Origin: Acidobacteriota bacterium
GTDB taxonomy: Bacteria; Acidobacteriota; UBA4820; DSQY01
Assembly (NCBI GenBank): GCA_037384885.1
Contig: JARRNO010000066.1
Coordinates: forward strand, 1-37,624
DNA: 37,624 bases
Direction of reading: 5' to 3'
The notes under the pieces are model-generated. The model was not told the DNA's origin and ran no database searches. It saw only the letters and a program-made list of their open reading frames with translations. How positions within the stretch are numbered: position 1 is the first letter of the stretch; every line of letters starts with the position of its first letter. A program made the position numbers and the translations under genes. Positions 137 to 31,971 of this stretch are shown here, piece after piece.

Positions 137-478
137 TCAGACGCCGCCCCGGTGCATCATGCCCTGCATGACTCCCGTGCCGCCGAGGAAAAAGAACCAA
201 AGCGTGAACAGGCAGCCCCACAAGATGGCGATGATGCCAAGGACGATTCCGGCCAAAGAAAACCCCTTGCCCTTTTCAGAAGCCTGGCCGCGCTTGATTT
301 TGTTGAATTCCATGATTCCGATAATGAGTGCGGGGATGCCGGCAAGCCAGCCGCAGCAGAAAATGCCGACAATGCCCAGCACCAGAGCCGTGATGGCCAT
401 GCCGCTGGCTTTGTCCTGCACGCCCGGCGCGGACGGGGGCGGAGTTGCTGTCGTGGTAGGGGGAGGTACATCGCTCAT
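137..478 (-). CDS. small DUF4190-like integral membrane protein (113 aa)
   Basis: ORF 137..691 trimmed to the ATG at 476-478, which is preceded by AAGGAGG (rc of 485-491). The product starts MSDVPPPTTTATPPP, followed by two long hydrophobic helices (ITALVLGIVGIFCCGWLAGIPALIIGI and GFSLAGIVLGIIAILWGCLFTLWFFF). Confidence 0.55.
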   Translation of the reverse strand: MSDVPPPTTTATPPPSAPGVQDKASGMAITALVLGIVGIFCCGWLAGIPALIIGIMEFNKIKRGQASEKGKGFSLAGIVLGIIAILWGCLFTLWFFFLGGTGVMQGMMHRGGV

Positions 479-3680: not shown

Positions 3681-4049
3681 TCAGGACTCCATGACGGCAT
3701 TCAGGACCTTAAGGACCTTTTCGGCGGAAAAGGGCTTGACGATAAAGTCCTTGGCCCCGGCGGCGATGGATTCGATCACGAGCGCTTCCTGGCCGATCGC
3801 CGAACACATGACGACGCGCGCGCCGTCGTGTGCCTTCAGGATTTCCCGGCAGGCTTCGATGCCGTCCATCTGGGGCATGACAATATCCATGGTGACAAGG
3901 TCGGGCGTCAGCGTTTTGAATTTCTCCACCGCTTCCTGCCCGTTCGCCGCTTCGCCCACCACTTCAAACTGTCCCGAGTTGGTGAGAATGTCCCTGATCA
4001 TGGCGCGCATGAACATGGCGTCGTCAACGATGAGAACCTTGAACGGCAT
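3681..4049 (-). CDS. cheY: chemotaxis response regulator CheY
   Basis: 122-aa single receiver domain: MPFKVLIVDDAMFMR..., phospho-acceptor context LVTMDIVMPQMDG, and KDFIVKPF. GGGGAGG lies upstream of the ATG. Confidence 0.93.
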   Translation of the reverse strand: MPFKVLIVDDAMFMRAMIRDILTNSGQFEVVGEAANGQEAVEKFKTLTPDLVTMDIVMPQMDGIEACREILKAHDGARVVMCSAIGQEALVIESIAAGAKDFIVKPFSAEKVLKVLNAVMES

Positions 4050-16980: not shown

Positions 16981-18990
16981 TCACTGTTCGATCTGGAACT
17001 CGACAGGGTACGTCAGCTGCGTTTTAACAGGGACGCCGTCCTTTATGGCGGGAGAGTATCGAGTCTTCATGGCGGCTTCAATGCAGGCCTCGTCCAGCCC
17101 GTAATCGGGCTGGGGCCCGCGGATGACTTTGGCGTCTGTCACCCGGCCCTGTTCGTCGATGTCCACGGTAACGTAGACCGTTCCCTCCACTCGGTGCTGG
17201 CGGGCAAGGGACGTATAGCGAACGGAAACGCGCTTGATGACTTTGGGCTTGATGTCCACCTCCCAGATGTGGACGAAAGCTCCGGCTTTCACCTTGGGTT
17301 TCGGCACAGGAGCCTTCATGACAAGCTCGTTGTCGGCGGGAGGCTGCTGGAGGGCAGGACCCGGGGCGGCTGTTTCGTTGGCGGACGCGGAAGGAAGAGC
17401 ATTGGCCCGAGGCGGCTCGGAGGGGGTCCCGGAATCGCCAGCCCCCTTGCCGGCAGCGGCTTCATTGGGCTTCGGCGAAGGAGACGCGGCGGCGTTGCCA
17501 TCCGCCGGTTTCGGCGCGGCGTCTTCTTCTGCGTTCTTTTCTTTCGGAGCGCTCTCTTGCTGCGAACTGAGCTTGGCCAGAAGGGCCTGCTGCTGCCGGC
17601 GCTGATCAGCGATGGTTTGTCTGGCCTTGGCGAGAGCGTCCAGCATCTGCTGCCTCTCCTCTGTCGTTTTGGCATTCGGGAGAGAACCCTCTAGGCGTGT
17701 TTTCTGCTTTTCCGCGGCCGAAAGCTGCTTGGCGAGTTGCTGCTGCTTCTTCTGGAAGTTCTCTCTTTCTTTCGCCATCTGTGCTTCATACTGGGCGCGA
17801 AGCCGGGCCTCCTGAGCCCTCCTGGGCGCGATGACCAAAAACCATACGCCGGCAGCCGCGACAGCGATCACGGCAGCGGCGGCGCCTCCGATCTTCAGCC
17901 ACTTCCCAGCGCTTCCTCCTTCCGAGCCGGCTGCTCCATAGGAGGAGAAGAGCGAGCTCCCGCTTTCCGGGAACTCTCCCGAACGCTGCTTTTCGCCTCC
18001 CCCGGAGGGCGCGGCCTTGGCTGGGGCCTTAAACGGCGGAGCCTTGAGAAAAGGCGTCCGGTTCAGACTCAGGTGCCCGCGGTTTGTCTCGGCCTCCTGC
18101 TCATCCTGGCCCCGGAAAAGGGTATGCATCAGGAAGGCGATATTAAAAGTTGTGGGGCTGTATTCACCGGAGGCAATCAACGCGTCCAGATCGCTTTTCA
18201 TGGCCTGGAGATCGGTGTATGCCCCGGAGTGGTCCGGGTCAAGCCCCTTCCGGACGATCTCCATGATATCCGCCGGGGGCGGCTCCGCCAGTCCCAGACC
18301 CTTCGCGCCCTGCTCGAGGCGGGTCTGGAGATTGATCTGCTCGGGACCTTCGGAGCAAAAGGGCTCATGGCAGATGAACTCAAAAAGCAGCAATGCAAGC
18401 GCCTTGGGGTCCTGCGATGGGCTCAGGGGCTGCCCCTTGGGAAGCGTGGGAGGCAGATAGGCCCGATGGTGCGCGAGGATCGGCGAGCCGGCCAGGGAGG
18501 TGGTGTGGAGGTTTCGTATGGCCGGCGGGAAGAGCCGGACCTCGCCTTCGAAAGTTATCAGCACCTGGTGCGGGGAAAGATGGCCGAGGAATTCTTCCTG
18601 GGTGCCCACGGACACAGCGGCGCCGGCAAGACGTTCCGCCAGGTAGACGGCCTGGTCGGGTGCGAGCGGCACCCCTTCTTCGCGGCAGCGGCCCAGCATC
18701 TGGCCGAGGGTCCGGCCGAGGCGGAACTCACACACGTAGTAAAGCCGGCCGCCCAGTTCGCCGAAGTCGAGAAGGTTCAGGGTGTGGATATCCCGGATTT
18801 CCTTCCAGTGCTGGCAACGTGTCTTAATAAGTGCCACTGCGGCGGCGTCTTCTGAAAGCTCTGGCGAAAACCGGACGAGGAATTTCAGCTCCGGCGGGCC
18901 TTCCAGGTTGACAGCCTTGTACACGATCCCCAGGTCGAAACGCGAGTGCTCTTCGACCAACAGGTATTCGCCCCAGCGTTCCGGCTTCAT
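16981..18990 (-). CDS. membrane-anchored pseudokinase with coiled coil, Pro/Ala-rich spacer and a TonB C-terminal domain
   Basis: The N-terminal roughly 270 aa has a Hanks-kinase-like fold, but the Gly loop, VAIK Lys, HRD Asp and DFG are all absent ([20 protein letters not shown]). One TM helix ([25 protein letters not shown]) is followed by a coiled coil ([28 protein letters not shown]). The C-terminal 85 aa match TonB_C ([27 protein letters not shown]...[11 protein letters not shown]). Confidence 0.8.
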
Positions 18991-19019
18991 TACAGGCCCT
19001 CTTCAAAAGACACGGCCAG

Positions 19020-19047
19020 TTTAAACAGACCCGGCCGGTCCTGTCAA
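19020..19047 (-). promoter_or_regulatory. candidate sigma70 promoter of the pseudokinase-glnA operon
   Basis: On the minus strand, TTGACA (19047-19042), a 16-nt spacer, then TTTAAA (19025-19020). This lies about 30 nt upstream of the ATG at 18990 and downstream of terminator B. Confidence 0.45.
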
Positions 19048-19136
19048 TCGGGCCTGGCCCCGGCGGGAAGGACGATTCGAGGAATACCATCGAACCCTTC
19101 GGCATGGTTTGCGCCGGACCCGCACGGGGGGCGGGG

Positions 19137-19202
19137 ACAAAAAAAGAGAACGGGAGCTGGGGAGCTCCCGTTCAATAAGGGATGGGAGGGGTGTTCTGCC
19201 GA
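19137..19202 (-). ncRNA. candidate sigma54-dependent small RNA B (about 65 nt)
   Basis: The predicted start is about 12 nt downstream of the -12 GC at 19214-19215. The G-poor 5' part is ..GAACACCCCUCCCAUCCCUUAUU. It ends in a perfect 11-bp hairpin GAACGGGAGCU-CCCC-AGCUCCCGUUC (19148-19173) followed by UCUUUUUUU. There is no start codon or ORF. Confidence 0.6.
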
Positions 19203-19213
19203 CTCTTACTAAA

Positions 19214-19228
19214 GCAACATGCGTGCCA
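19214..19228 (-). promoter_or_regulatory. sigma54 -24/-12 promoter B
   Basis: The minus strand reads TTGGCACGCATGTTGCTT. This matches the consensus YTGGCACG-N4-TTGCW with correct GG/GC spacing. Confidence 0.7.
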
Positions 19229-19270
19229 ATTATTACGTCCTTTAAATTCAGTGACTTAGCGCTTTTGGGG

Positions 19271-19318
19271 GGCATGCCGTTTTGGCGCACTACGTGCCAT
19301 TATGGCGCACATGGCGCC
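19271..19318. promoter_or_regulatory. tandem 20-bp imperfect dyads, candidate enhancer-binding-protein sites
   Basis: The plus strand reads ggcatgccgttttggcgcac / tacgtgccattatggcgcac (15 of 20 identical), plus a third partial atggcgcc. On the minus strand these read GTGCGCCA-WAA-YGGCAYG, resembling the NtrC-type TGCACCA-N3-TGGTGCA. They sit 45-90 bp upstream of promoter B, and an AT-rich tract (19229-19255) lies between. Confidence 0.45.
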
Positions 19319-19388
19319 GGGACGGCAGGTGTGTCGAAAAGGTCTCACTTGCCGCCGCTTGAAAATTTGCCTTGGACCCGTCCAGTTC

Positions 19389-19439
19389 AAAGAAAAAGCC
19401 CCTTTCGGGGCTATAAGGAGGAATGGAGGGGGTATGAGG
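19389..19439 (-). ncRNA. candidate sigma54-dependent small RNA A (about 50 nt)
   Basis: The predicted start is about 12 nt downstream of the -12 GC at 19451-19452. The sequence is GCCUCAUACCCCCUCCAUUCCUCCUUAUAG, then hairpin AGCCCC-GAAA-GGGGCU (19397-19412), then UUUUCUUU. There is no ORF. Confidence 0.6.
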
Positions 19440-19449
19440 CAATATATTA

Positions 19450-19465
19450 TGCAAGCCGTGTGCCA
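19450..19465 (-). promoter_or_regulatory. sigma54 -24/-12 promoter A
   Basis: The minus strand reads CTGGCACACGGCTTGCAT, a near-perfect TGGCAC-N5-TTGCA. Confidence 0.7.
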
Positions 19466-19509
19466 GAAACGTGATTCCTGCCCCTTCGCAAACGCCGCGA
19501 TTCGCCCTG

Positions 19510-19518
19510 TGGTATACT
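19510..19518 (+). promoter_or_regulatory. possible extended -10 element for pyrK
   Basis: TGgTATACT lies 16 nt upstream of the pyrK ATG. There is no convincing -35, and it would give a very short leader. Confidence 0.25.
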
Positions 19519-19533
19519 CCCAACGGAGGTTGC

Positions 19534-20310
19534 ATGGCCCTTAAGACATTTCAGGTGACGGAAAACCGCGTGCAAGGTTCCTACGCCGCCATTACGGCTG
19601 AAGGGCCCGTCAGTCCTGCACTTCCAGGCCAGTTCTACATGTTGAGAGGAGACTGGGGCGCCGATCCTCTCTTAAGCCGTCCTGTGTCTATTTTGGCGCA
19701 AGACGTGTCATCTCGACAGATTCGCTTCCTGATAAAGGTGTTCGGTGAGGGCTCGCGCCGGCTGGCGTCGCTGAAGCCCGGCGAGCTGCTCTACGGGACG
19801 GGACCCTTCGGGAATACGTTTCCAGTGGATTTTCTTTCGCCGGAAGATCGTGTCCTGCTGGTGGGCGGCGGGGTGGGCATGCCGCCCATCGTCTACTTGG
19901 CGGAATCCACGAAAGCGATGGGAGTATCCCCCGTCGTTCTTCAGGGGGGGCGCACTGAAAAGGATCTCGTCCTGCTGGAGGAGCTGGCCGGCCTGAAGAT
20001 CGATCCGGTCCTGGCCACCGAAGACGGCAGCCGTGGCCGTAAGGGCCGGGTGACCGTCCTCCTGGAAGAGGCTCTGAAAGATGCGCCACGTGTGGTCTAT
20101 GCCTGCGGTCCGGAAGGCATGTTGCAGGCCGTGGCGGACGTTTGCCGCGGCAGAGTGGCCTGCTACCTGAGCCTGGAAGCCTACATGGCTTGCGGCTATG
20201 GCGTCTGCCTCGGTTGCGTCGTGTCCGTGCGGCAGGAGGAGGGAGGCCGCTACCGCCGTGTATGCAAGGAAGGGCCCGTCTTTTCGGCGGAGGATCTGAC
20301 ATGGCGGTAG
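19534..20310 (+). CDS. pyrK: dihydroorotate dehydrogenase B electron-transfer subunit
   Basis: 258 aa from the ATG at 19534 (GGAGG upstream). FNR-like fold (PGQFYMLR, RPVSI, GPFGN, LVGGGVGMPP) and a C-terminal 2Fe-2S motif (CGYGVCLGCVV...CKEGPVF). Confidence 0.9.
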   Translation: MALKTFQVTENRVQGSYAAITAEGPVSPALPGQFYMLRGDWGADPLLSRPVSILAQDVSSRQIRFLIKVFGEGSRRLASLKPGELLYGTGPFGNTFPVDFLSPEDRVLLVGGGVGMPPIVYLAESTKAMGVSPVVLQGGRTEKDLVLLEELAGLKIDPVLATEDGSRGRKGRVTVLLEEALKDAPRVVYACGPEGMLQAVADVCRGRVACYLSLEAYMACGYGVCLGCVVSVRQEEGGRYRRVCKEGPVFSAEDLTWR

Positions 20311-25606: not shown

Positions 25607-25635
25607 TTGTCAAGTTTGGAGGGCGGCATTACAAT
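25607..25635 (+). promoter_or_regulatory. candidate sigma70 promoter of the nfnAB-like operon
   Basis: TTGTCA (25607-25612), a 17-nt spacer, then TACAAT (25630-25635), about 70 nt upstream of the ATG at 25706. Confidence 0.5.
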
Positions 25636-25705
25636 CATGCCCCTCAAAGGCCTCGGGCCCATTCATGGTAGCACGCCCGGGTCCCAAGACAGTATAGGGG
25701 AGCCA

Positions 25706-26560
25706 ATGTACGAAATCACTGGAAAAAAATCGCTGGCGACCGGGGTTGTGGAGATGAAAGTTTACGCGCCCAGGGTAGCCCGGCATCATAAGCCCGGCCA
25801 GTTCCTGATGGTCATGAACGACGAGGACGGCGAACGCATCCCCCTCACCATCGCCGATTCCAACGCGGAAAGCGGCGAAGTGACCATTGTTTTCCTGGAA
25901 GTGGGGCGGACCACCATCGAATTGGCCACGAAGTTCAACGTGGGCGATTCGCTTTTTGCCGTGGTCGGCCCGCTGGGCACTCCCACGCATATCGAGAACT
26001 TCGGGACGGTCGTGGTGGTGGGAGGCGGCCTCGGTGTCGCTCCCATCTACCCCATCTGCAAGGGGTTGAAAGAGGCGGGCAACAAGGTCGTTTCCATCGT
26101 CGGGTACCGCCGGAAGGACCTGATGTTCTGGGAGGACCGCATCGAGTCCGCATCGAGCGAGATGATCGTGACCACCGACGACGGCTCCTTCGGTATGAAG
26201 GGATTTGTCACCACGGCGCTCGAAAAGCTCCACGACGAAGGGCGGAAGATCGACCGGATTATCGCCATCGGCCCACCCGTCATGATGCGCGCCGTTTCCC
26301 AGCTCACAGAACCCTGGAAGATTTCCACCTGGGTCTCTCTCAATACCATCATGGTGGACGGCACCGGCATGTGCGGCGGCTGCCGTGTGGAAGTGGGCGA
26401 CGAAACGCGGTTCGTCTGCGTGGACGGCCCGGATTTCGATGCACACAAAGTCAACTGGGACGAGATGTTCAAGCGCATGAAGGTGTACACCGAAGAAGAA
26501 CGCCGCGCATTGCACGCCGACGAGCCTTGCCGGCTCGAGTTCCAGGCGCTCAAGAAGTAA
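25706..26560 (+). CDS. NfnA / SudB-like FAD and 2Fe-2S subunit (ferredoxin-NADP+ oxidoreductase small subunit family)
   Basis: 284 aa from the ATG at 25706 (GGGGAG upstream). Contains KPGQFLMV, RIPLTIAD, GPLGTP, VVVGGGLGVAPIYP, and MVDGTGMCGGCRV...FVCVDGPDF. Confidence 0.85.
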   Translation: MYEITGKKSLATGVVEMKVYAPRVARHHKPGQFLMVMNDEDGERIPLTIADSNAESGEVTIVFLEVGRTTIELATKFNVGDSLFAVVGPLGTPTHIENFGTVVVVGGGLGVAPIYPICKGLKEAGNKVVSIVGYRRKDLMFWEDRIESASSEMIVTTDDGSFGMKGFVTTALEKLHDEGRKIDRIIAIGPPVMMRAVSQLTEPWKISTWVSLNTIMVDGTGMCGGCRVEVGDETRFVCVDGPDFDAHKVNWDEMFKRMKVYTEEERRALHADEPCRLEFQALKK

Positions 26561-26570
26561 GGGGATCAAC

Positions 26571-28859
26571 ATGCATGAAGCAATTGACATAGAAAAGCTC
26601 GGCGGGGTCAAGGAGGGGGAACGTAAAAAACCCCGGTCCAAGGAAGCCCGCCACGAGATCGCCTGCCAACCCGCCGACGAACGGATTCACAACTACAACG
26701 AGGTGGCGCTGGGGTATAACCCGGAAATTGCGGTGTCCGAGGCAATGAGATGCCTGGAATGTCCCAAGCCGCGCTGTGTGGTTGCATGCCCGGTCCACAT
26801 CGATATTCCCTCGTTCATCGGAAAGGTCTCCCGGGGGAAATTCGAAGAGGCGGCCGAGGACATCAGGCAGTACAATAATCTGCCGGCCATTTGCGGCCGG
26901 GTCTGCCCCCAGGAAAACCTCTGCGAGGCGGCATGCATCATCAACGACACCAATGAGGGCAACCCGATCGCCATCGGCCGCTTGGAAAGATTCTCCGCGG
27001 ACTGGCAGCTTCTCCACGGGAACCACAGCGGCAGCGAGGTCCACAAACGTCCCGCGACCGGGTGCAAAGTGGCCGTCATCGGCACGGGGCCCTCGGGCCT
27101 CTCATGTGCTGCGGACCTTGCAAAGATGGGACACTCGGTGGACATGTACGAGGCCCTGCACAAGCCGGGCGGCGTGCTGATGTACGGCATTCCCGAATTC
27201 CGGCTTCCCAAGGAGATCGTGCAAAAGGAAATCAGTTTCGTGAAGTCGCTCGGCGTGAATATCGAGCTGAACTGCGTGGTGGGGCGGACCATCCCGGTGG
27301 AAGAGATCATGGAGACCTACGACGCGGTCTACGTGGCCACCGGCGCCGGCTTTCCCAACATGATGAAAATCCCCGGGGAGAACCTCAACGGAATCTATTC
27401 CGCCAACGAGTTCCTGACCCGGGTGAATCTCATGCGGGCCTGGCAGCATCCAGCGGCGGGCACGCCCGTCCGCAAGCCCAAGAAGGCCGTTGTCGTCGGC
27501 GCAGGGTTTACCGCCTTCGACGTGGTGCGCATCGCGCTCCGGCTTGGCGCAGAAGAGGCGCAGATCGTCTACCGGCGGTCCCGTGAGGAAATGCCGGGCC
27601 GCGGCGAAGAGATCGAGCATGCCGAAGAAGAGGGCGCCAAACTGACGCTTCTAACCAACCCCGTGCAGTACATCGGGGATGAAAGGGGCTTTGTCAAGGC
27701 CGTGGAAGTTCAGAAGATGGAGTTGGGAGAGCCCGACTCCTCAGGACGGAGGCGCCCGGTTCCCATCGAGGGGAGCAATTACATCATCGATGCCGACCTG
27801 GTGGTCGTGGCCATCGGCCAGACGCCCAACGTGCTCATCCCTTCGAACCTTCCCGGGCTCGAAACGCGCTGGGGTTCCATCATCAAGGTAAACCGGGAGA
27901 CCTATATGACCTCGGTTCCCAAAGTCTTCGCCGGAGGGGACGCCATCACGGGGGCCGCCACCGTTATTCTCGCCACCCGGGCCGGGCGCGAAGCGGCGCG
28001 CTCCATCGACGCCTACGTGCGCATCCCAACCGAAGCTGGGCCGAACCCAACTGATCCGGCAGATAGGGGATTTCTCATGGAAGTAGTGGAACGATTCAAA
28101 GCATACCTGGAAGAACCCTTCGCCGAGTCTCTCATGAAGGATTTCGAATCCGCGCTCAAACATCTCGAGGAGGTGGATGCCTCGCCGTCCATGCAGGACC
28201 TCGTTACAGACATGGCCGGATTGCGGGAAAATCCCTCATTCCCGAGGAAGGCGGGGCTTTTCCTGTCTGCGTACCTGAAAATAGCGGCCCGTCCAGAGTC
28301 TATCGACCTGGAATCTTTCGAAGACACGCGCCTGGAAGGTCTCGGCGCTTGCATGGACAAAGCCGATCTCACCGTCAAGGGTGATGCGGGCAACTATACG
28401 GGCGCCTTCATGCTGTCCGGAACCCTCACCGTTGAAGGGGACGTGGGGGACTACACCGGATTTTCCATGGAAGGCGGCACGCTGCACGTCAAGGGCCTCT
28501 CGGAAAGCCACACCGGCCACTCCATGTCCGGCGGGCGCATCGTGGTGGACCGCAATGCGCACGATTTTACCGGCAACCGCATGACGGGCGGCTACATCCG
28601 CATCCGGGCGAACGCCGGCTATTCGACCGGCTACCGCATGGTCGGCGGGTTTATCGAGGTCCGGGACTTGGCATGGGACCTGGCCGGCGAAGAAATGATC
28701 GGAGGCCGCATCCAAATCGGCGGCCACGTGGGACACGACCTTGGTTATTCCATGGTCGGCGGCGAACTCGCCGTCAACGAGAAGAACAGCGAAACGCCTC
28801 GTGTCAGAGCAAAGGGGGGACAGCTCACTGTGGTAGCGCGCGGAAAAAAGCGACGCTGA
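26571..28859 (+). CDS. NfnB / GltD-like NAD(P)H flavin oxidoreductase fused to a C-terminal GXGXG beta-helix domain
   Basis: Residues 1 to about 470 have Fe-S Cys motifs (CLECPKPRCVVACP, CGRVCPQENLCEAAC), an FAD site (VAVIGTGPSGLSCA), a second Rossmann fold (VVVGAGFTAFD) and AGGDA. Residues 600 to 745 (nt 28368 onward) are repeated G-x-x-G-x-x-M-x-GG-x-I/L turns (GDAGNYTGAFMLSGTLTVEG, GDYTGFSMEGGTLHVKG, HTGHSMSGGRIVV, FTGNRMTGGYIRI...). These resemble the C-terminal domain of glutamate synthase large subunit and FwdC. Confidence 0.8.
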   Translation: MHEAIDIEKLGGVKEGERKKPRSKEARHEIACQPADERIHNYNEVALGYNPEIAVSEAMRCLECPKPRCVVACPVHIDIPSFIGKVSRGKFEEAAEDIRQYNNLPAICGRVCPQENLCEAACIINDTNEGNPIAIGRLERFSADWQLLHGNHSGSEVHKRPATGCKVAVIGTGPSGLSCAADLAKMGHSVDMYEALHKPGGVLMYGIPEFRLPKEIVQKEISFVKSLGVNIELNCVVGRTIPVEEIMETYDAVYVATGAGFPNMMKIPGENLNGIYSANEFLTRVNLMRAWQHPAAGTPVRKPKKAVVVGAGFTAFDVVRIALRLGAEEAQIVYRRSREEMPGRGEEIEHAEEEGAKLTLLTNPVQYIGDERGFVKAVEVQKMELGEPDSSGRRRPVPIEGSNYIIDADLVVVAIGQTPNVLIPSNLPGLETRWGSIIKVNRETYMTSVPKVFAGGDAITGAATVILATRAGREAARSIDAYVRIPTEAGPNPTDPADRGFLMEVVERFKAYLEEPFAESLMKDFESALKHLEEVDASPSMQDLVTDMAGLRENPSFPRKAGLFLSAYLKIAARPESIDLESFEDTRLEGLGACMDKADLTVKGDAGNYTGAFMLSGTLTVEGDVGDYTGFSMEGGTLHVKGLSESHTGHSMSGGRIVVDRNAHDFTGNRMTGGYIRIRANAGYSTGYRMVGGFIEVRDLAWDLAGEEMIGGRIQIGGHVGHDLGYSMVGGELAVNEKNSETPRVRAKGGQLTVVARGKKRR

Positions 28860-29716: not shown

Positions 29717-30821
29717 ATGACGGCGAAGGTGGATCTTTCCGCCGAAACCAAGTACGGTCTCCTGCTCGAAATCGAACACAAAGTGAGGGGGACGCTCGAT
29801 CTGGACTCCATCATGAACCACCTCCTGGATACCATCGGGTCGGTCATGGATTATGACGCCGCCGGGATCTTCATCCTCAACCGGGGAGCGGTCCTCCCCC
29901 ATCGCGGGCCGCCGGGCAATGTCATCGCCGGGATCGCCTTGAGGGGTTTCGACCTGGGGCCGCCCGAGGCCGATCCCATGCTGTCCGAAGGGAAGGGCGT
30001 CATCGGCCGGGTCATCCGCACCGGGGAGACAGTCCTGATCTCCGATGTGGCGAAGGATCCGGACTATATTGCCGGCAGGAAGAGAACCCGTTCCGAGGTG
30101 GCGGTGCCCATTTGCCATCAGGACCGCGTGATCGGCGCCCTCAACGTGGAGAGCGACCGTCCCGGCGCATTCAGCGAGAGGGACCTCGGCATCCTGAACT
30201 TCTTTGCAGACGCCACCGGAATCTCTATCGAAAGGGCCGTCCTTCACCGGCAGATTCTGGAGAAGAAGTGCATGGAGGAGCAGCTCCGCCTCGCCCGCGA
30301 CGTGCAGGCGCGCCTGCTTCCGGCCGCCCCGCCGGGAATTGCGGGATACGACATCGACGGATTATGCATTCCCGCTTACGAAATCGGCGGAGACAGCACA
30401 TGGCCGGCCGGCTCAACAAATTTCTCCTGGACGACTCCAATACGGCCACTTTCGTGACCGCCGTCTACGGAACTCTTGATCCTCCGAGCGGAGAGTTCCG
30501 CTATTCGGTGCTCGGCCATAATCCGCCCCTTCTTCTCCGCGCCGACGGCAGGTGCGAAGAGCTTCGAGCGGGCGGGCTGCCTCTGGGGATTCGTCCGCGG
30601 GTGTCGCCCCTGATGGGAGAGGCCCGCCTGCGGCGGGGAGACGTGCTCGTCCTCTATACGGATGGAGTGGTGGAAAGCGGTGGACCGGAAGGGCCCGATT
30701 TCGGACTGGAGCGGCTGGTCGATGTTCTCAGGCATTCACTGCAGCAAAACGCCATGGGCATGATCAAAAATGTGGTCCAGGCCACGACTTTACGCTTGTC
30801 GTGGTCAAGCGTACCCCCTGA
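29717..30821 (+). pseudogene. GAF-domain PP2C (SpoIIE-type) phosphatase, disrupted and spread over three frames
   Basis: Frame 1 carries the GAF domain (GVIGRVIRTGETVLISDV, EVAVPICHQDRVIGALNVES) and the PP2C start (ARDVQARLLP...AYEIGGD) to about 30394, then nonsense. Frame 2 from about 30400 carries the middle of PP2C (RLNKFLLDDSNTATFVTAVYG, LGHNPPLLL, VLYTDGVVE). Frame 3 from about 30780 carries the end (HDFTLVVVKRTP, stop at 30819-30821). The GGD(Y)YD...DVSGKG...AAL segment is missing. Confidence 0.7.
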
Positions 30822-30861
30822 TCGGCGGAGGAACCGGGGGAGTTTCACCGTGGTGCCCCCG

Positions 30862-31971
30862 TCACCGCCCCGCCGCCTCCGGACTTCCGAACAACGCCGG
30901 CTGCAGGGTGCGTCCGTCAGCCATCCCGGCGCCTTCCCGCTCGAGGTCCAGCAGCTTCTGCTTTCTCCAGAGACCGCCTCCATAGCCGCCAAGGTCCCCG
31001 TTTTTGTTGACGACCCGGTGGCAGGGGATGACGATGGCGATCCGGTTCATTCCGTTGGCCGTGCCCACGGCGCGGCAGGCGCCGGGTGAACCCACCGCAA
31101 GGGCGAGATCCTGGTAACTGCGCGTTTCCCCGTAGGGGATTTTCAAGAGTTCGTCCCAGACCTGCTGCTGAAAGGGGGTTCCGGGGTAAAGCAGCGGCAG
31201 GTCGAATGCACGGCGGTTGCCGGAAAAATACTCGGAAAGCTGCCGGCGGAGATCTTTCAGATGGACATTCGCGCCCGGCACGACCGCCCGTTTGAATCGC
31301 TTCTGTATTGTTTGAAATTGGGCCTCCAGCCTCCGCCGGTCTGTGAATTCCAGCAGGCACACGCCCTCCTGGGTCGAGCCGGCCACGAGCGGACCCAGGG
31401 GACTGTCGATCCAGGAAAGGAGAACACAGTCCCCGTCCGCCGAACGGCCGGGCGGAATACCGAATGCTCTCTGGAAGGCGTCGCGGAATCCGCTTAAGGA
31501 CTCGTAGCCGTGGTCCAGCGCGGCGCCGTCAAGGGATTCTCCCTTGCGGATCCCTTCCAGCGCCCGGCCAAGCCGGAGCCCCCTGCAGAACGCCTGGAAG
31601 GTCATGCCGAAGTTCGCCTTGAAGTAGCGCCGGACCCTCACGGGGTCCACTCCGGATTCCCTCAAGTCGCCGTCGGAAATCCTGCGGGAGGGATCGGCTT
31701 CCGCTTGCTCGATCAGCGACCGGACCCATTCGGGCGGCCGTCCGGCCGTTTCCATCGGCCTGCAACGCTTGCAGGGGCGGAATCCAGAAAAGAGGGCCTC
31801 GCGCGCGGTGCCGAAAAAACGGCGGTGTGCAGGCAGGGCCCTTTTCGCCGGACATGAGGGCCGGCAAAACACGCCGGTGCTTGTGATGCCCACAAAGAAG
31901 ATCCCGTCATAGTCCGCGTCGCGTCGTTCGAAGGCCTGTTCCATCTCTTCCAGAGGGGGCAATACAGGCAC
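30862..31971 (-). CDS. ada: bifunctional Ada: Zn-finger methylphosphotriester acceptor, AraC HTH, and O6-methylguanine-DNA methyltransferase
   Basis: Ada Zn motif (FCRPSCPAKR...FRPCKRCRP), AraC-type HTH (GYESLSGFRDAFQRAFG), and MGMT active site (IPCHRVV). Start set to the GTG at 31971, 5 nt after AAGGAGG. The track ATG at 32025 is an alternative. Confidence 0.85.
   Translation of the reverse strand: MPVLPPLEEMEQAFERRDADYDGIFFVGITSTGVFCRPSCPAKRALPAHRRFFGTAREALFSGFRPCKRCRPMETAGRPPEWVRSLIEQAEADPSRRISDGDLRESGVDPVRVRRYFKANFGMTFQAFCRGLRLGRALEGIRKGESLDGAALDHGYESLSGFRDAFQRAFGIPPGRSADGDCVLLSWIDSPLGPLVAGSTQEGVCLLEFTDRRRLEAQFQTIQKRFKRAVVPGANVHLKDLRRQLSEYFSGNRRAFDLPLLYPGTPFQQQVWDELLKIPYGETRSYQDLALAVGSPGACRAVGTANGMNRIAIVIPCHRVVNKNGDLGGYGGGLWRKQKLLDLEREGAGMADGRTLQPALFGSPEAAGR

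Follow-up and report, generated by a model that had tools for sequence, protein, structure and literature searches.

Predicted tandem small RNA genes with sigma-54-type promoters and anti-Shine-Dalgarno seeds represent a conserved, undescribed family in Acidobacteriota

Homologous small RNAs (sRNAs) that are transcribed from -24/-12 promoters and need an enhancer-binding protein (EBP) are represented by Qrr1-5 in Vibrio, which depend on LuxO, and by GlmY/GlmZ in Enterobacteria, which depend on GlrR/QseF and whose promoters also use IHF. NrsZ of Pseudomonas aeruginosa, a sigma-54/NtrC-dependent RNA with a link to nitrogen limitation, is built from repeated short modules that each carry a terminator-like hairpin. 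Tandem siblings are found in OmrA/OmrB of the Enterobacterales, two adjacent sRNAs with a common 5' seed, each having its own terminator and its own promoter of the sigma-70 type, dependent on OmpR. C-rich single-stranded motifs that pair with G-rich mRNA close to the Shine-Dalgarno (SD) sequence occur in sX13 (Xanthomonas), RsaE/RoxS (Firmicutes), CcsR (Rhodobacter) and 6C RNA (Actinobacteria). In Acidobacteriota, which are among the most abundant bacteria of soils and sediments, hardly any riboregulators have been described; a survey from 2022 gives four annotated sRNA families for this phylum versus 345 for Proteobacteria (PMC9029176). The sRNAs alpha-r14/NfeR1 ('CuKoo') and AbcR1/AbcR2 act in trans through anti-SD seeds (CCUCCUCCC), which occlude the ribosome-binding sites of many mRNAs, and CuKoo sibling copies bear similar seeds; NfeR1, about 120 nt long, has three anti-SD motifs in hairpin loops and a promoter region with predicted RpoD, LsrB and NtrC sites, LsrB acting as activator and NtrC as repressor (10.1101/2025.11.14.688489). 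Here we describe two sRNA genes, A and B, predicted in tandem on the minus strand of a 37,624-nt stretch of DNA from an Acidobacteriota bacterium (assembly GCA_037384885.1, contig JARRNO010000066.1, positions 1 to 37,624; GTDB lineage UBA4820, DSQY01), the whole of which we refer to as the window.

Both predicted genes lie in the divergent intergenic gap (18991-19533) between pyrK (plus strand, start at 19534) and a minus-strand gene for a 669-aa, pseudokinase-like TonB_C-domain protein (16981-18990, start at 18990), with glnA next downstream. The promoter of A, CTGGCACACGGCTTGCAT (19449-19466, minus strand), contains an exact TGGCAC-N5-TTGC at 19465-19451, and that of B, TTGGCACGCATGTTGCTT (19212-19229, minus strand), contains another at 19228-19214. 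An earlier reading of this DNA from its letters alone, the original prediction, had proposed two near-consensus -24/-12 elements here; both are in fact exact, and the sites were placed correctly apart from a small offset, the quoted 18-nt strings occupying 19466-19449 and 19229-19212. Two exact elements compare with 0.04 expected, two or more occurred in none of 100 dinucleotide shuffles, and the window holds no further one even at one mismatch. Across 33 aligned copies (17 of A and 16 of B), TGGCA-N6-TTGC is invariant at constant spacing, while the spacer and the stretch from -12 to +1 vary freely; three copies found later depart from it by one base each (ATGC in A of L083 and in B of L108, TGGTA in A of L111; L numbers denote the loci of our comparison). 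With GG at -24, GC at -12 and this fixed spacing, both elements can be classed as predicted sigma-54 promoters.

When +1 is set twelve bases past the C of the -12 GC, transcription would start at about 19439 for A and at about 19202 for B, and it is at these two positions, named in the original prediction as well, that conservation across loci begins. sRNA A is thus predicted to span about 51 nt (19389-19439, minus strand), comprising a 5' seed, CCUCAUACCCCCUCCAUUCCUCCUUAU (19439-19413), which is unstructured in the fold, a terminator hairpin, AGCCCC-GAAA-GGGGCT (19412-19397), and a U tail, TTTTCTTT (19396-19389). sRNA B, with an extent of about 62-64 nt (19139-19202, minus strand) predicted from promoter spacing, terminator and fold, begins with the seed (UC)GGCAGAACACCCCUCCCAUCCCUUAUU (19202-19174) and continues into an 11-bp terminator stem, GAACGGGAGCT-CCCC-AGCTCCCGTTC (19173-19148), and the U tail TCTTTTTTT (19147-19139). 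Each promoter is therefore followed, as had been claimed, by an intrinsic terminator with its own U tract. The two seeds share the core CCCCUCC(A/C)AU(U/C)CC, which includes the anti-SD core CCUCC, and the earlier expectation that this G-poor, C/U-rich part would be single-stranded agrees with folding: the 5'-terminal 25-27 nt are unpaired in both RNAs and the terminator alone forms (Z-scores of -2.5 for A and -5.8 for B). The seed was unpaired in all six RNAs folded, and the minimum-free-energy structures, whose ensemble frequency was 46-86%, contained the terminator only and nothing that would compete with it. ATG, GTG and TTG are all absent from sRNA A, and tblastn searches with the mechanically listed open reading frames (ORFs) of the gap detected no conserved ORF, in keeping with the view that none fits between promoter and terminator.

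The seed is the part of the cassette that has changed least. The 25 nt between promoter and hairpin are the best-conserved sequence of the whole intergenic region, and CCCCUCC(A/C)AUUCCUC is nearly invariant across copies. The conserved RNA block of A reads (C)CUCAU(A)CCCCCUCCAUUCCUC and that of B GGCAGAACACCCCUCCCAUUCCUCC or UGCCUAACCCCCUCCC, with the openings GGCAGAAC or UGCCUAAC; these blocks open 0-4 nt from the +1 predicted by -12 spacing, and in sRNA B the conservation of GGCAGAACACCCC sets in at the predicted start site. The terminators are conserved in structure. By direct pair counts over 15 distinct sequences, pairing of the B terminator is 100%, and in three pairs both partners have changed (one of these pairs, for example, being G-C in 8, A-U in 6 and G-U in 1); this covariation exceeded that of 498-500 out of 500 shuffles and of all slid controls. 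In the A stem, the closing pair alternates between A-U, G-C and G-U, and the loops vary. Both hairpins can accordingly be described as predicted intrinsic terminators, G+C-rich, followed by a U tract and marked by compensatory changes, and both units as predicted stand-alone, non-coding sRNAs of the base-pairing type with a conserved single-stranded seed.

The family comprises 23 copies of A (18 distinct) and 20 of B (12 distinct), with the A-then-B pair present in more than 20 acidobacterial loci. The pair stands in this order upstream of an orthologue of the pseudokinase-like gene in five GTDB species representatives (L001, L007, L010, L013 and L014). A pattern scan of metagenome contigs contributed 16 further loci, besides four other matches that were false positives. 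Of the 16, 15 have the promoter, the seed and the terminator or are truncated by a contig end, and the remaining one, L083, carries a variant A copy, which was picked up later by the profile hidden Markov model (HMM) that was run locally for the family scans. L106-L111 were added by look-ups around homologues of the usual upstream TonB-like gene. All loci with a taxon in their source record are labelled Acidobacteriota, as are the named TonB-like homologues that led to L106-L111, the metagenome contigs from the Joint Genome Institute (JGI; L081-L099) carrying no taxon label. Among 64 non-acidobacterial control loci, from Bdellovibrionota, Myxococcota and other sources, the profile HMM found no copy. 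Relatives thus retain what the original prediction had described, namely the -24/-12 elements, the seed, and the succession of promoter, seed and terminator, and the comparison shows that selection acts in many Acidobacteriota on the putative promoters, on the seeds from their predicted +1 onwards and on the structure of the terminators.

Some matches of the pattern scan were set aside as not belonging to the family, namely L084, L089, L096 (in the interior of a coding region and without a terminator) and L100. L091 was rejected as well. There, a livH-like ABC permease gene is preceded, at 2266-2313 on the minus strand, by a sigma-54-like promoter (TTGGCATCGTCATTGC), a leader rich in C (CCCCCUCCCUUUCCUUCCCCCGC) and a hairpin that lacks a U tract; this element may be a separate sigma-54-driven 5' untranslated region with a similar C-rich motif.

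The DNA in front of B is organised in a manner suggestive of activation at a distance. Two enhancer-like dyads, CGCCATAATGGCA (19307-19295) and CGCCAAAACGGCA (19287-19275), lie on the minus strand within 19275-19307, at -105 and -85 from the predicted start of B. Dyads of the form (T/C)GCC-N5-GGCA, such as GTGCCATATTGGCAC, recur at about -102 and about -84 in seven loci (L001, L090, L094, L099, L106, L107 and L108), and further loci have a single one. Closer to the promoter, at -56, is an IHF-like site, TAAGTCACTGAA (19247-19258, minus strand), called by consensus only; in 14 of 19 B loci an IHF-like YAA-N4-YTGAW starts at -54 to -56. B is hence preceded by predicted dyads, an IHF-like site and a -24/-12 element, the upstream-enhancer layout of an enhancer-dependent sigma-54 promoter. 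The half-sites of the dyads differ from the enterobacterial NtrC consensus. A further dyad, GTGTC-N6-GACAC, lies between A and B, in the window in the degenerate form GAGAC-N6-GACAC (19331-19346, minus strand). Most loci carry it with one mismatch or none, the distance being +71 to +96 from the start of A and/or about -142 from that of B, and it is retained at +71 and +73 in two loci with A only (L097 and L111).

With regard to known families, Rfam gave no match at gathering thresholds in the window or in 15 related loci, which agrees with the original prediction, where the pair was not recognised as Qrr, Pxr, CrcZ or NrsZ. When matches up to E = 10 were considered for the gap, the best was alpha-r14 (RF02344) to B, with 17.5 bits versus a gathering threshold of 58.8 and E = 0.88; the alignment covers only the CCUCCC tract and the terminator, and membership in alpha-r14/NfeR1 was rejected at a score so far below the threshold. 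sX13 (13.1 versus 50 bits) and ErsA (13.9 versus 50 bits) were likewise below threshold, and Qrr, GlmY, GlmZ and NrsZ gave no match even at E up to 10.

The likenesses to described systems are ones of principle. A and B resemble alpha-r14/NfeR1 in their anti-SD seeds and sibling copies, but each is predicted to consist of one linear 5' seed of about 25 nt and a terminator, behind a sigma-54-type promoter and in another phylum, alpha-r14 being alpha-proteobacterial. They are tandem siblings like OmrA/OmrB, which however have no sequence similarity to them, are more structured at about 80-90 nt and do not have seeds of the anti-SD C/U type. The succession of dyad, IHF-like site and -24/-12 element at the B promoter recalls Qrr and GlmY/GlmZ; the latter are 100-200 nt long with several hairpins, have other dyad sequences and occur as dispersed copies, whereas A and B form a fixed tandem cassette. 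In sX13, RsaE/RoxS, CcsR and 6C RNA, the C-rich motifs reside in hairpin loops, none of these RNAs is known to be sigma-54-dependent and none is homologous to A and B. NrsZ, finally, is a single transcript processed into modules, in contrast to A and B with a promoter each, and the nitrogen link that characterises it is unsupported here. A full-text literature search found no paper on sigma-54-dependent or anti-SD sRNAs in Acidobacteria. On the strength of the comparative sequence evidence, we regard A and B as a genuine and conserved sRNA family that had not been described before, functionally of a known kind and belonging to none of the systems compared.

As to how this family may work, we consider it probable that A and B are sibling sRNAs, induced by an EBP and sigma-54, which occlude the SD regions of several mRNAs in trans. 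An autonomous cassette would give rise to an RNA of about 51 nt (A) and another of about 63 nt (B), with a -24/-12 promoter and an intrinsic terminator for each. One or two EBPs would switch both on upon a signal, A possibly being driven from its downstream side, through the conserved dyad or dyads there, and the CCUCC-bearing seeds would pair with the SD and start regions of several mRNAs, thereby blocking translation and probably destabilising the messages. Our confidence is greater for the more limited statement that A and B are genuine sigma-54 sRNA genes than for the full mechanism. Usually the cassette stands at the 3' end of the lpxD-fabZ-lpxA...TonB-like operon, a hint that its regulon is related to the envelope and not to nitrogen control.

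The genes around the cassette bear on a different reading, in which A and B would be leaders or attenuators acting in cis: transcription from a sigma-54 start at A or B, with conditional read-through brought about by a protein or RNA antiterminator, would drive the TonB_C/pseudokinase-like-glnA operon in the way of a nitrogen promoter of the glnAp2 type. Such an arrangement would account for the observation that B points towards a co-directional downstream gene in most loci, and for the presence of glnA, a classical sigma-54/NtrC target, downstream in the window; weak pairing of the C-rich seed with the 5' arm of the B terminator, which is G-rich, is also conceivable in principle. What lies downstream varies, however. 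In the commonest context, lpxD-fabZ-lpxA, a Gfo/Idh/MocA gene, a beta-lactamase-like gene and a TonB_2 gene are followed by A, B and a gene that differs between loci: a pseudokinase-like TonB_C gene in the window, L001, L007, L010, L013, L014, L083, L088 and L098, an MFS transporter gene in L085, L090, L094, L099, L106, L107 and L110, and a convergent ferritin-like gene in L108 and L109, while A alone, without B, precedes ftsEX in L097 and a tRNA synthetase gene in L111. The upstream neighbour is the TonB_2 gene in most loci, replaced by divergent pyrK-pyrD in the window and L001. At the MFS loci, terminator B and the next start codon are 130-500 nt apart, with no conservation in between, and the folds offer no alternative antiterminator. 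The pseudokinase-like gene has glnA behind it in the window and L001-L003 only, no sRNA was found in L002 and L003, and glnA is consequently downstream of the pair in the window lineage alone (the window and L001). The operon moreover has its own sigma-70-like promoter, TTGACA-N18-TAAACT (19047-19018, minus strand), which lies 3' of terminator B and outside the cassette; its form TTGACA-N17/18-TA(A/C)ACT is conserved upstream of most pseudokinase-like orthologues, including most of those without sRNAs (L003-L006, L011, L015 and L016 among them). A promoter past terminator B had been noted before, as TTGACA-N16-TTTAAA; the promoter stands, and the N18 version reads equally well and is the one kept in orthologues. 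Since the flanking genes change on both sides and the next gene is convergent in L108 and L109, the units are best seen as autonomous sRNA genes, stand-alone as originally proposed. A dedicated leader or attenuator is excluded by this comparison, and the cis reading as a whole appears quite improbable, though partial read-through may occur on top of sRNA production; the cassette moves and persists as a unit. The link to glnA and nitrogen limitation implied by the original prediction fares less well: being lineage-specific, it leaves a nitrogen-control role unsupported, and we rejected a nitrogen/glnA regulon on this ground and because the initiation regions of pyrK, glnA and the pseudokinase-like gene have no complementarity to the seeds.

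One may also accept genuine sigma-54 sRNAs and suppose that their C/U tract titrates an RNA-binding protein, in the manner of CsrB or CrcZ, or sponges another RNA. The best-conserved part is indeed a low-complexity tract repeated in two siblings, no conserved mRNA target could be demonstrated, and CrcZ, one of the comparators of the original prediction, is a sigma-54-dependent protein sponge. Yet each RNA has one short tract instead of the many repeats typical of sponges, this tract holds the exact anti-SD core CCUCC, perfect matches of 10-13 nt are centred on the SDs of three window genes, and a 5' seed followed by terminator and U tail is the layout of a base-pairing sRNA, so that we judge titration unlikely. 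It is much harder to maintain that there are no sRNA genes at all, that the hairpins do no more than terminate the operons next to them and that the -24/-12 matches are accidental or without function. Terminator A probably does end the upstream TonB_2 operon as well in most loci, because no other terminator stands between the TonB_2 stop codon and A, and that stop precedes the -24 element of A by only 10-70 nt in most loci and by 10 nt in L087; furthermore, a generic terminator scan of the region showed no enrichment (3 found versus 2.7 expected), which means that the significance of the terminators comes from their position, conservation and covariation. Against this stand the excess of exact consensus promoters over expectation, their near-invariance across copies while the neighbouring bases vary, a seed that is more conserved than any other intergenic sequence, and the fixed enhancer and IHF-like arrangement upstream of B, which together make the absence of sRNA genes very improbable. 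That A and B encode very small proteins is barely credible: the B of the window has a UUG followed by an open frame, but this UUG is not conserved, sRNA A lacks any such start, and both RNAs are G-poor and without an SD. The tblastn similarities of the gap ORFs are fragments of 14-25 aa only, in several frames and on both strands and all on conserved RNA sequence, indicating nucleotide and not coding conservation.

Possible targets of the preferred mechanism, SD occlusion in trans, were sought by comparing 28 translation-initiation regions of the window with the seeds, and three stood out from the others, whose predicted duplexes were all at -19.3 kcal/mol or weaker. With B, msrA reached -29.1 kcal/mol through a 10-nt perfect match, GGGAGGGGUG, over its SD, and the gene for a GAF-SpoIIE phosphatase, located beside msrA, reached -28.7 kcal/mol through a 12-nt match, GGGAUGGGAGGG, over the SD. 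With A, a DUF4190-like membrane-protein gene reached -25.7 kcal/mol through a 13-nt match, AAGGAGGAAUGGA, over the SD, and CUCAU could in addition pair with AUGAG at the start codon. We treat these three genes as candidate targets and as leads only. A weak lead is likewise provided by the Gfo/Idh/MocA gene of the lpx operon, a possible nearby target, albeit an inconsistent one: its G-rich initiation region is predicted to form strong duplexes with the local seeds in three of five loci (L106-L110), the strongest being that of L110 at -33.3 kcal/mol. Local targets in cis were rejected as a general explanation, given that complementarity to neighbouring genes is inconsistent across loci.

Several findings count against the proposed mechanism or narrow it. 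The start sites, the 3' ends and the sigma-54 dependence of both RNAs are all predictions. No rpoN or EBP gene was found in the window or any fetched locus, EBPs having been searched for by GAFTGA-type and Walker-type signatures in six-frame translations of the window and 36 loci. No target conserved across loci could be demonstrated, and neighbouring genes provide none with consistent complementarity. Anti-SD seeds are low in specificity, SD regions being G-rich by nature, and a perfect match of at least 12 nt arose by chance in about 9% of Markov simulations per seed for a random 37.6-kb sequence. For the GAF-SpoIIE gene, the closest named homologues (about 60% identity) come from other phyla, Latescibacteria or Ignavibacteriaceae, which renders a comparison of target conservation uninformative. 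The cassette is not universal in Acidobacteriota, as the profile HMM did not find it after the same TonB_2 gene or operon in some of them (L101-L105 and L112). Upstream of A, finally, there is no dyad or IHF-like site conserved across loci, and in the window the DNA upstream of A is replaced altogether relative to the TonB_2 loci. From this lack of a conserved upstream element, and from the GTGTC dyad kept in A-only loci, we infer that A may be activated from the dyad downstream of it, possibly by an activator other than that of B.

Downstream and separate activation of A would explain why the tandem order is fixed and why two near-identical seeds have been retained. An enhancer inside the cassette is suggested by the swapping of the DNA upstream of A between lineages and by the persistence of the GTGTC dyad where B was lost. 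Carried further, A, enhancer and B would constitute a single module in which B is activated classically from upstream and A from a dyad beyond its own terminator, with two different activators feeding two near-identical anti-SD seeds. The pair would be the post-transcriptional arm of an envelope or oxidative-stress sigma-54 regulon anchored at the end of the lipid A operon (lpxD-fabZ-lpxA); we put this forward as a speculative and rather doubtful extension.

While the concept of sRNA action is unchanged by this cassette, it adds to the Acidobacteriota an sRNA family that can be defined by sequence, is conserved in many lineages and can be annotated in metagenome-assembled genomes. Its RNA design, a seed and a terminator, is minimal, and its regulatory layout is legible, with a predicted -24/-12 promoter, an IHF-like site and dyads at fixed positions that offer a handle on the cognate EBP and its signal. 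A and B also allow one to ask whether anti-SD siblings, known mainly from Proteobacteria, represent a convergent solution in a distant phylum.

Among the candidate target genes, the GAF ORF at 29717-30457 (plus strand, 246 aa) stops short of a full GAF-SpoIIE/PP2C phosphatase and covers its N-terminal half alone, since the homologues are single proteins of about 425 aa, and a second, overlapping ORF (30112-31089, plus strand) continues in another frame; this split at 29717-31089 is due to a frameshift, a pseudogene or an assembly error. The DUF4190-like protein (113 aa; 137-478, minus strand) probably starts at the ATG at 478, after an AGGAGG SD, although the mechanical ORF list extends the gene to a GTG at 691. 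Of all predicted matches to the seed of sRNA A, that in the SD region of this gene is the best.

The protein encoded immediately downstream of the cassette in the window consists of a kinase-like N-terminal domain, a coiled, low-complexity middle part and a TonB_C end. Pfam detected no kinase domain in the 669-aa protein itself, Pkinase matches being confined to homologues, the closest of which are only about 40% identical; by this protein the window is placed in Acidobacteriota, and relatives of its N-terminal domain, distant ones, occur in Bdellovibrionota and Myxococcota. The stop codon of this gene overlaps the glnA start. Further along the window (25607-28859, plus strand), a second pyrK-like gene of the ferredoxin-reductase type is followed by a GltD-like gene (Fer4_20, Pyr_redox_2, GXGXG), a pair that resembles an NADPH-dependent glutamate-synthase-like or related oxidoreductase pair. 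Nitrogen-assimilation genes are thus located near the sRNAs in the window, with no visible link to them. In L098, short repeats resembling CCGCCTTCCG/TCTTTCG form a long tandem array (about 3720-3900, minus strand) directly upstream of the A promoter, where they take the place of the usual 3' end of the TonB_2 gene. L101 and L102 are located on one JGI contig of 827,786 nt, which contains two near-identical lpxD-fabZ-lpxA-Gfo/Idh/MocA-beta-lactamase-like-TonB_2-DHH/CBS/PolyA_pol clusters about 290 kb apart, both without the sRNA cassette; this repeat is either a large duplication or the product of a chimeric assembly.

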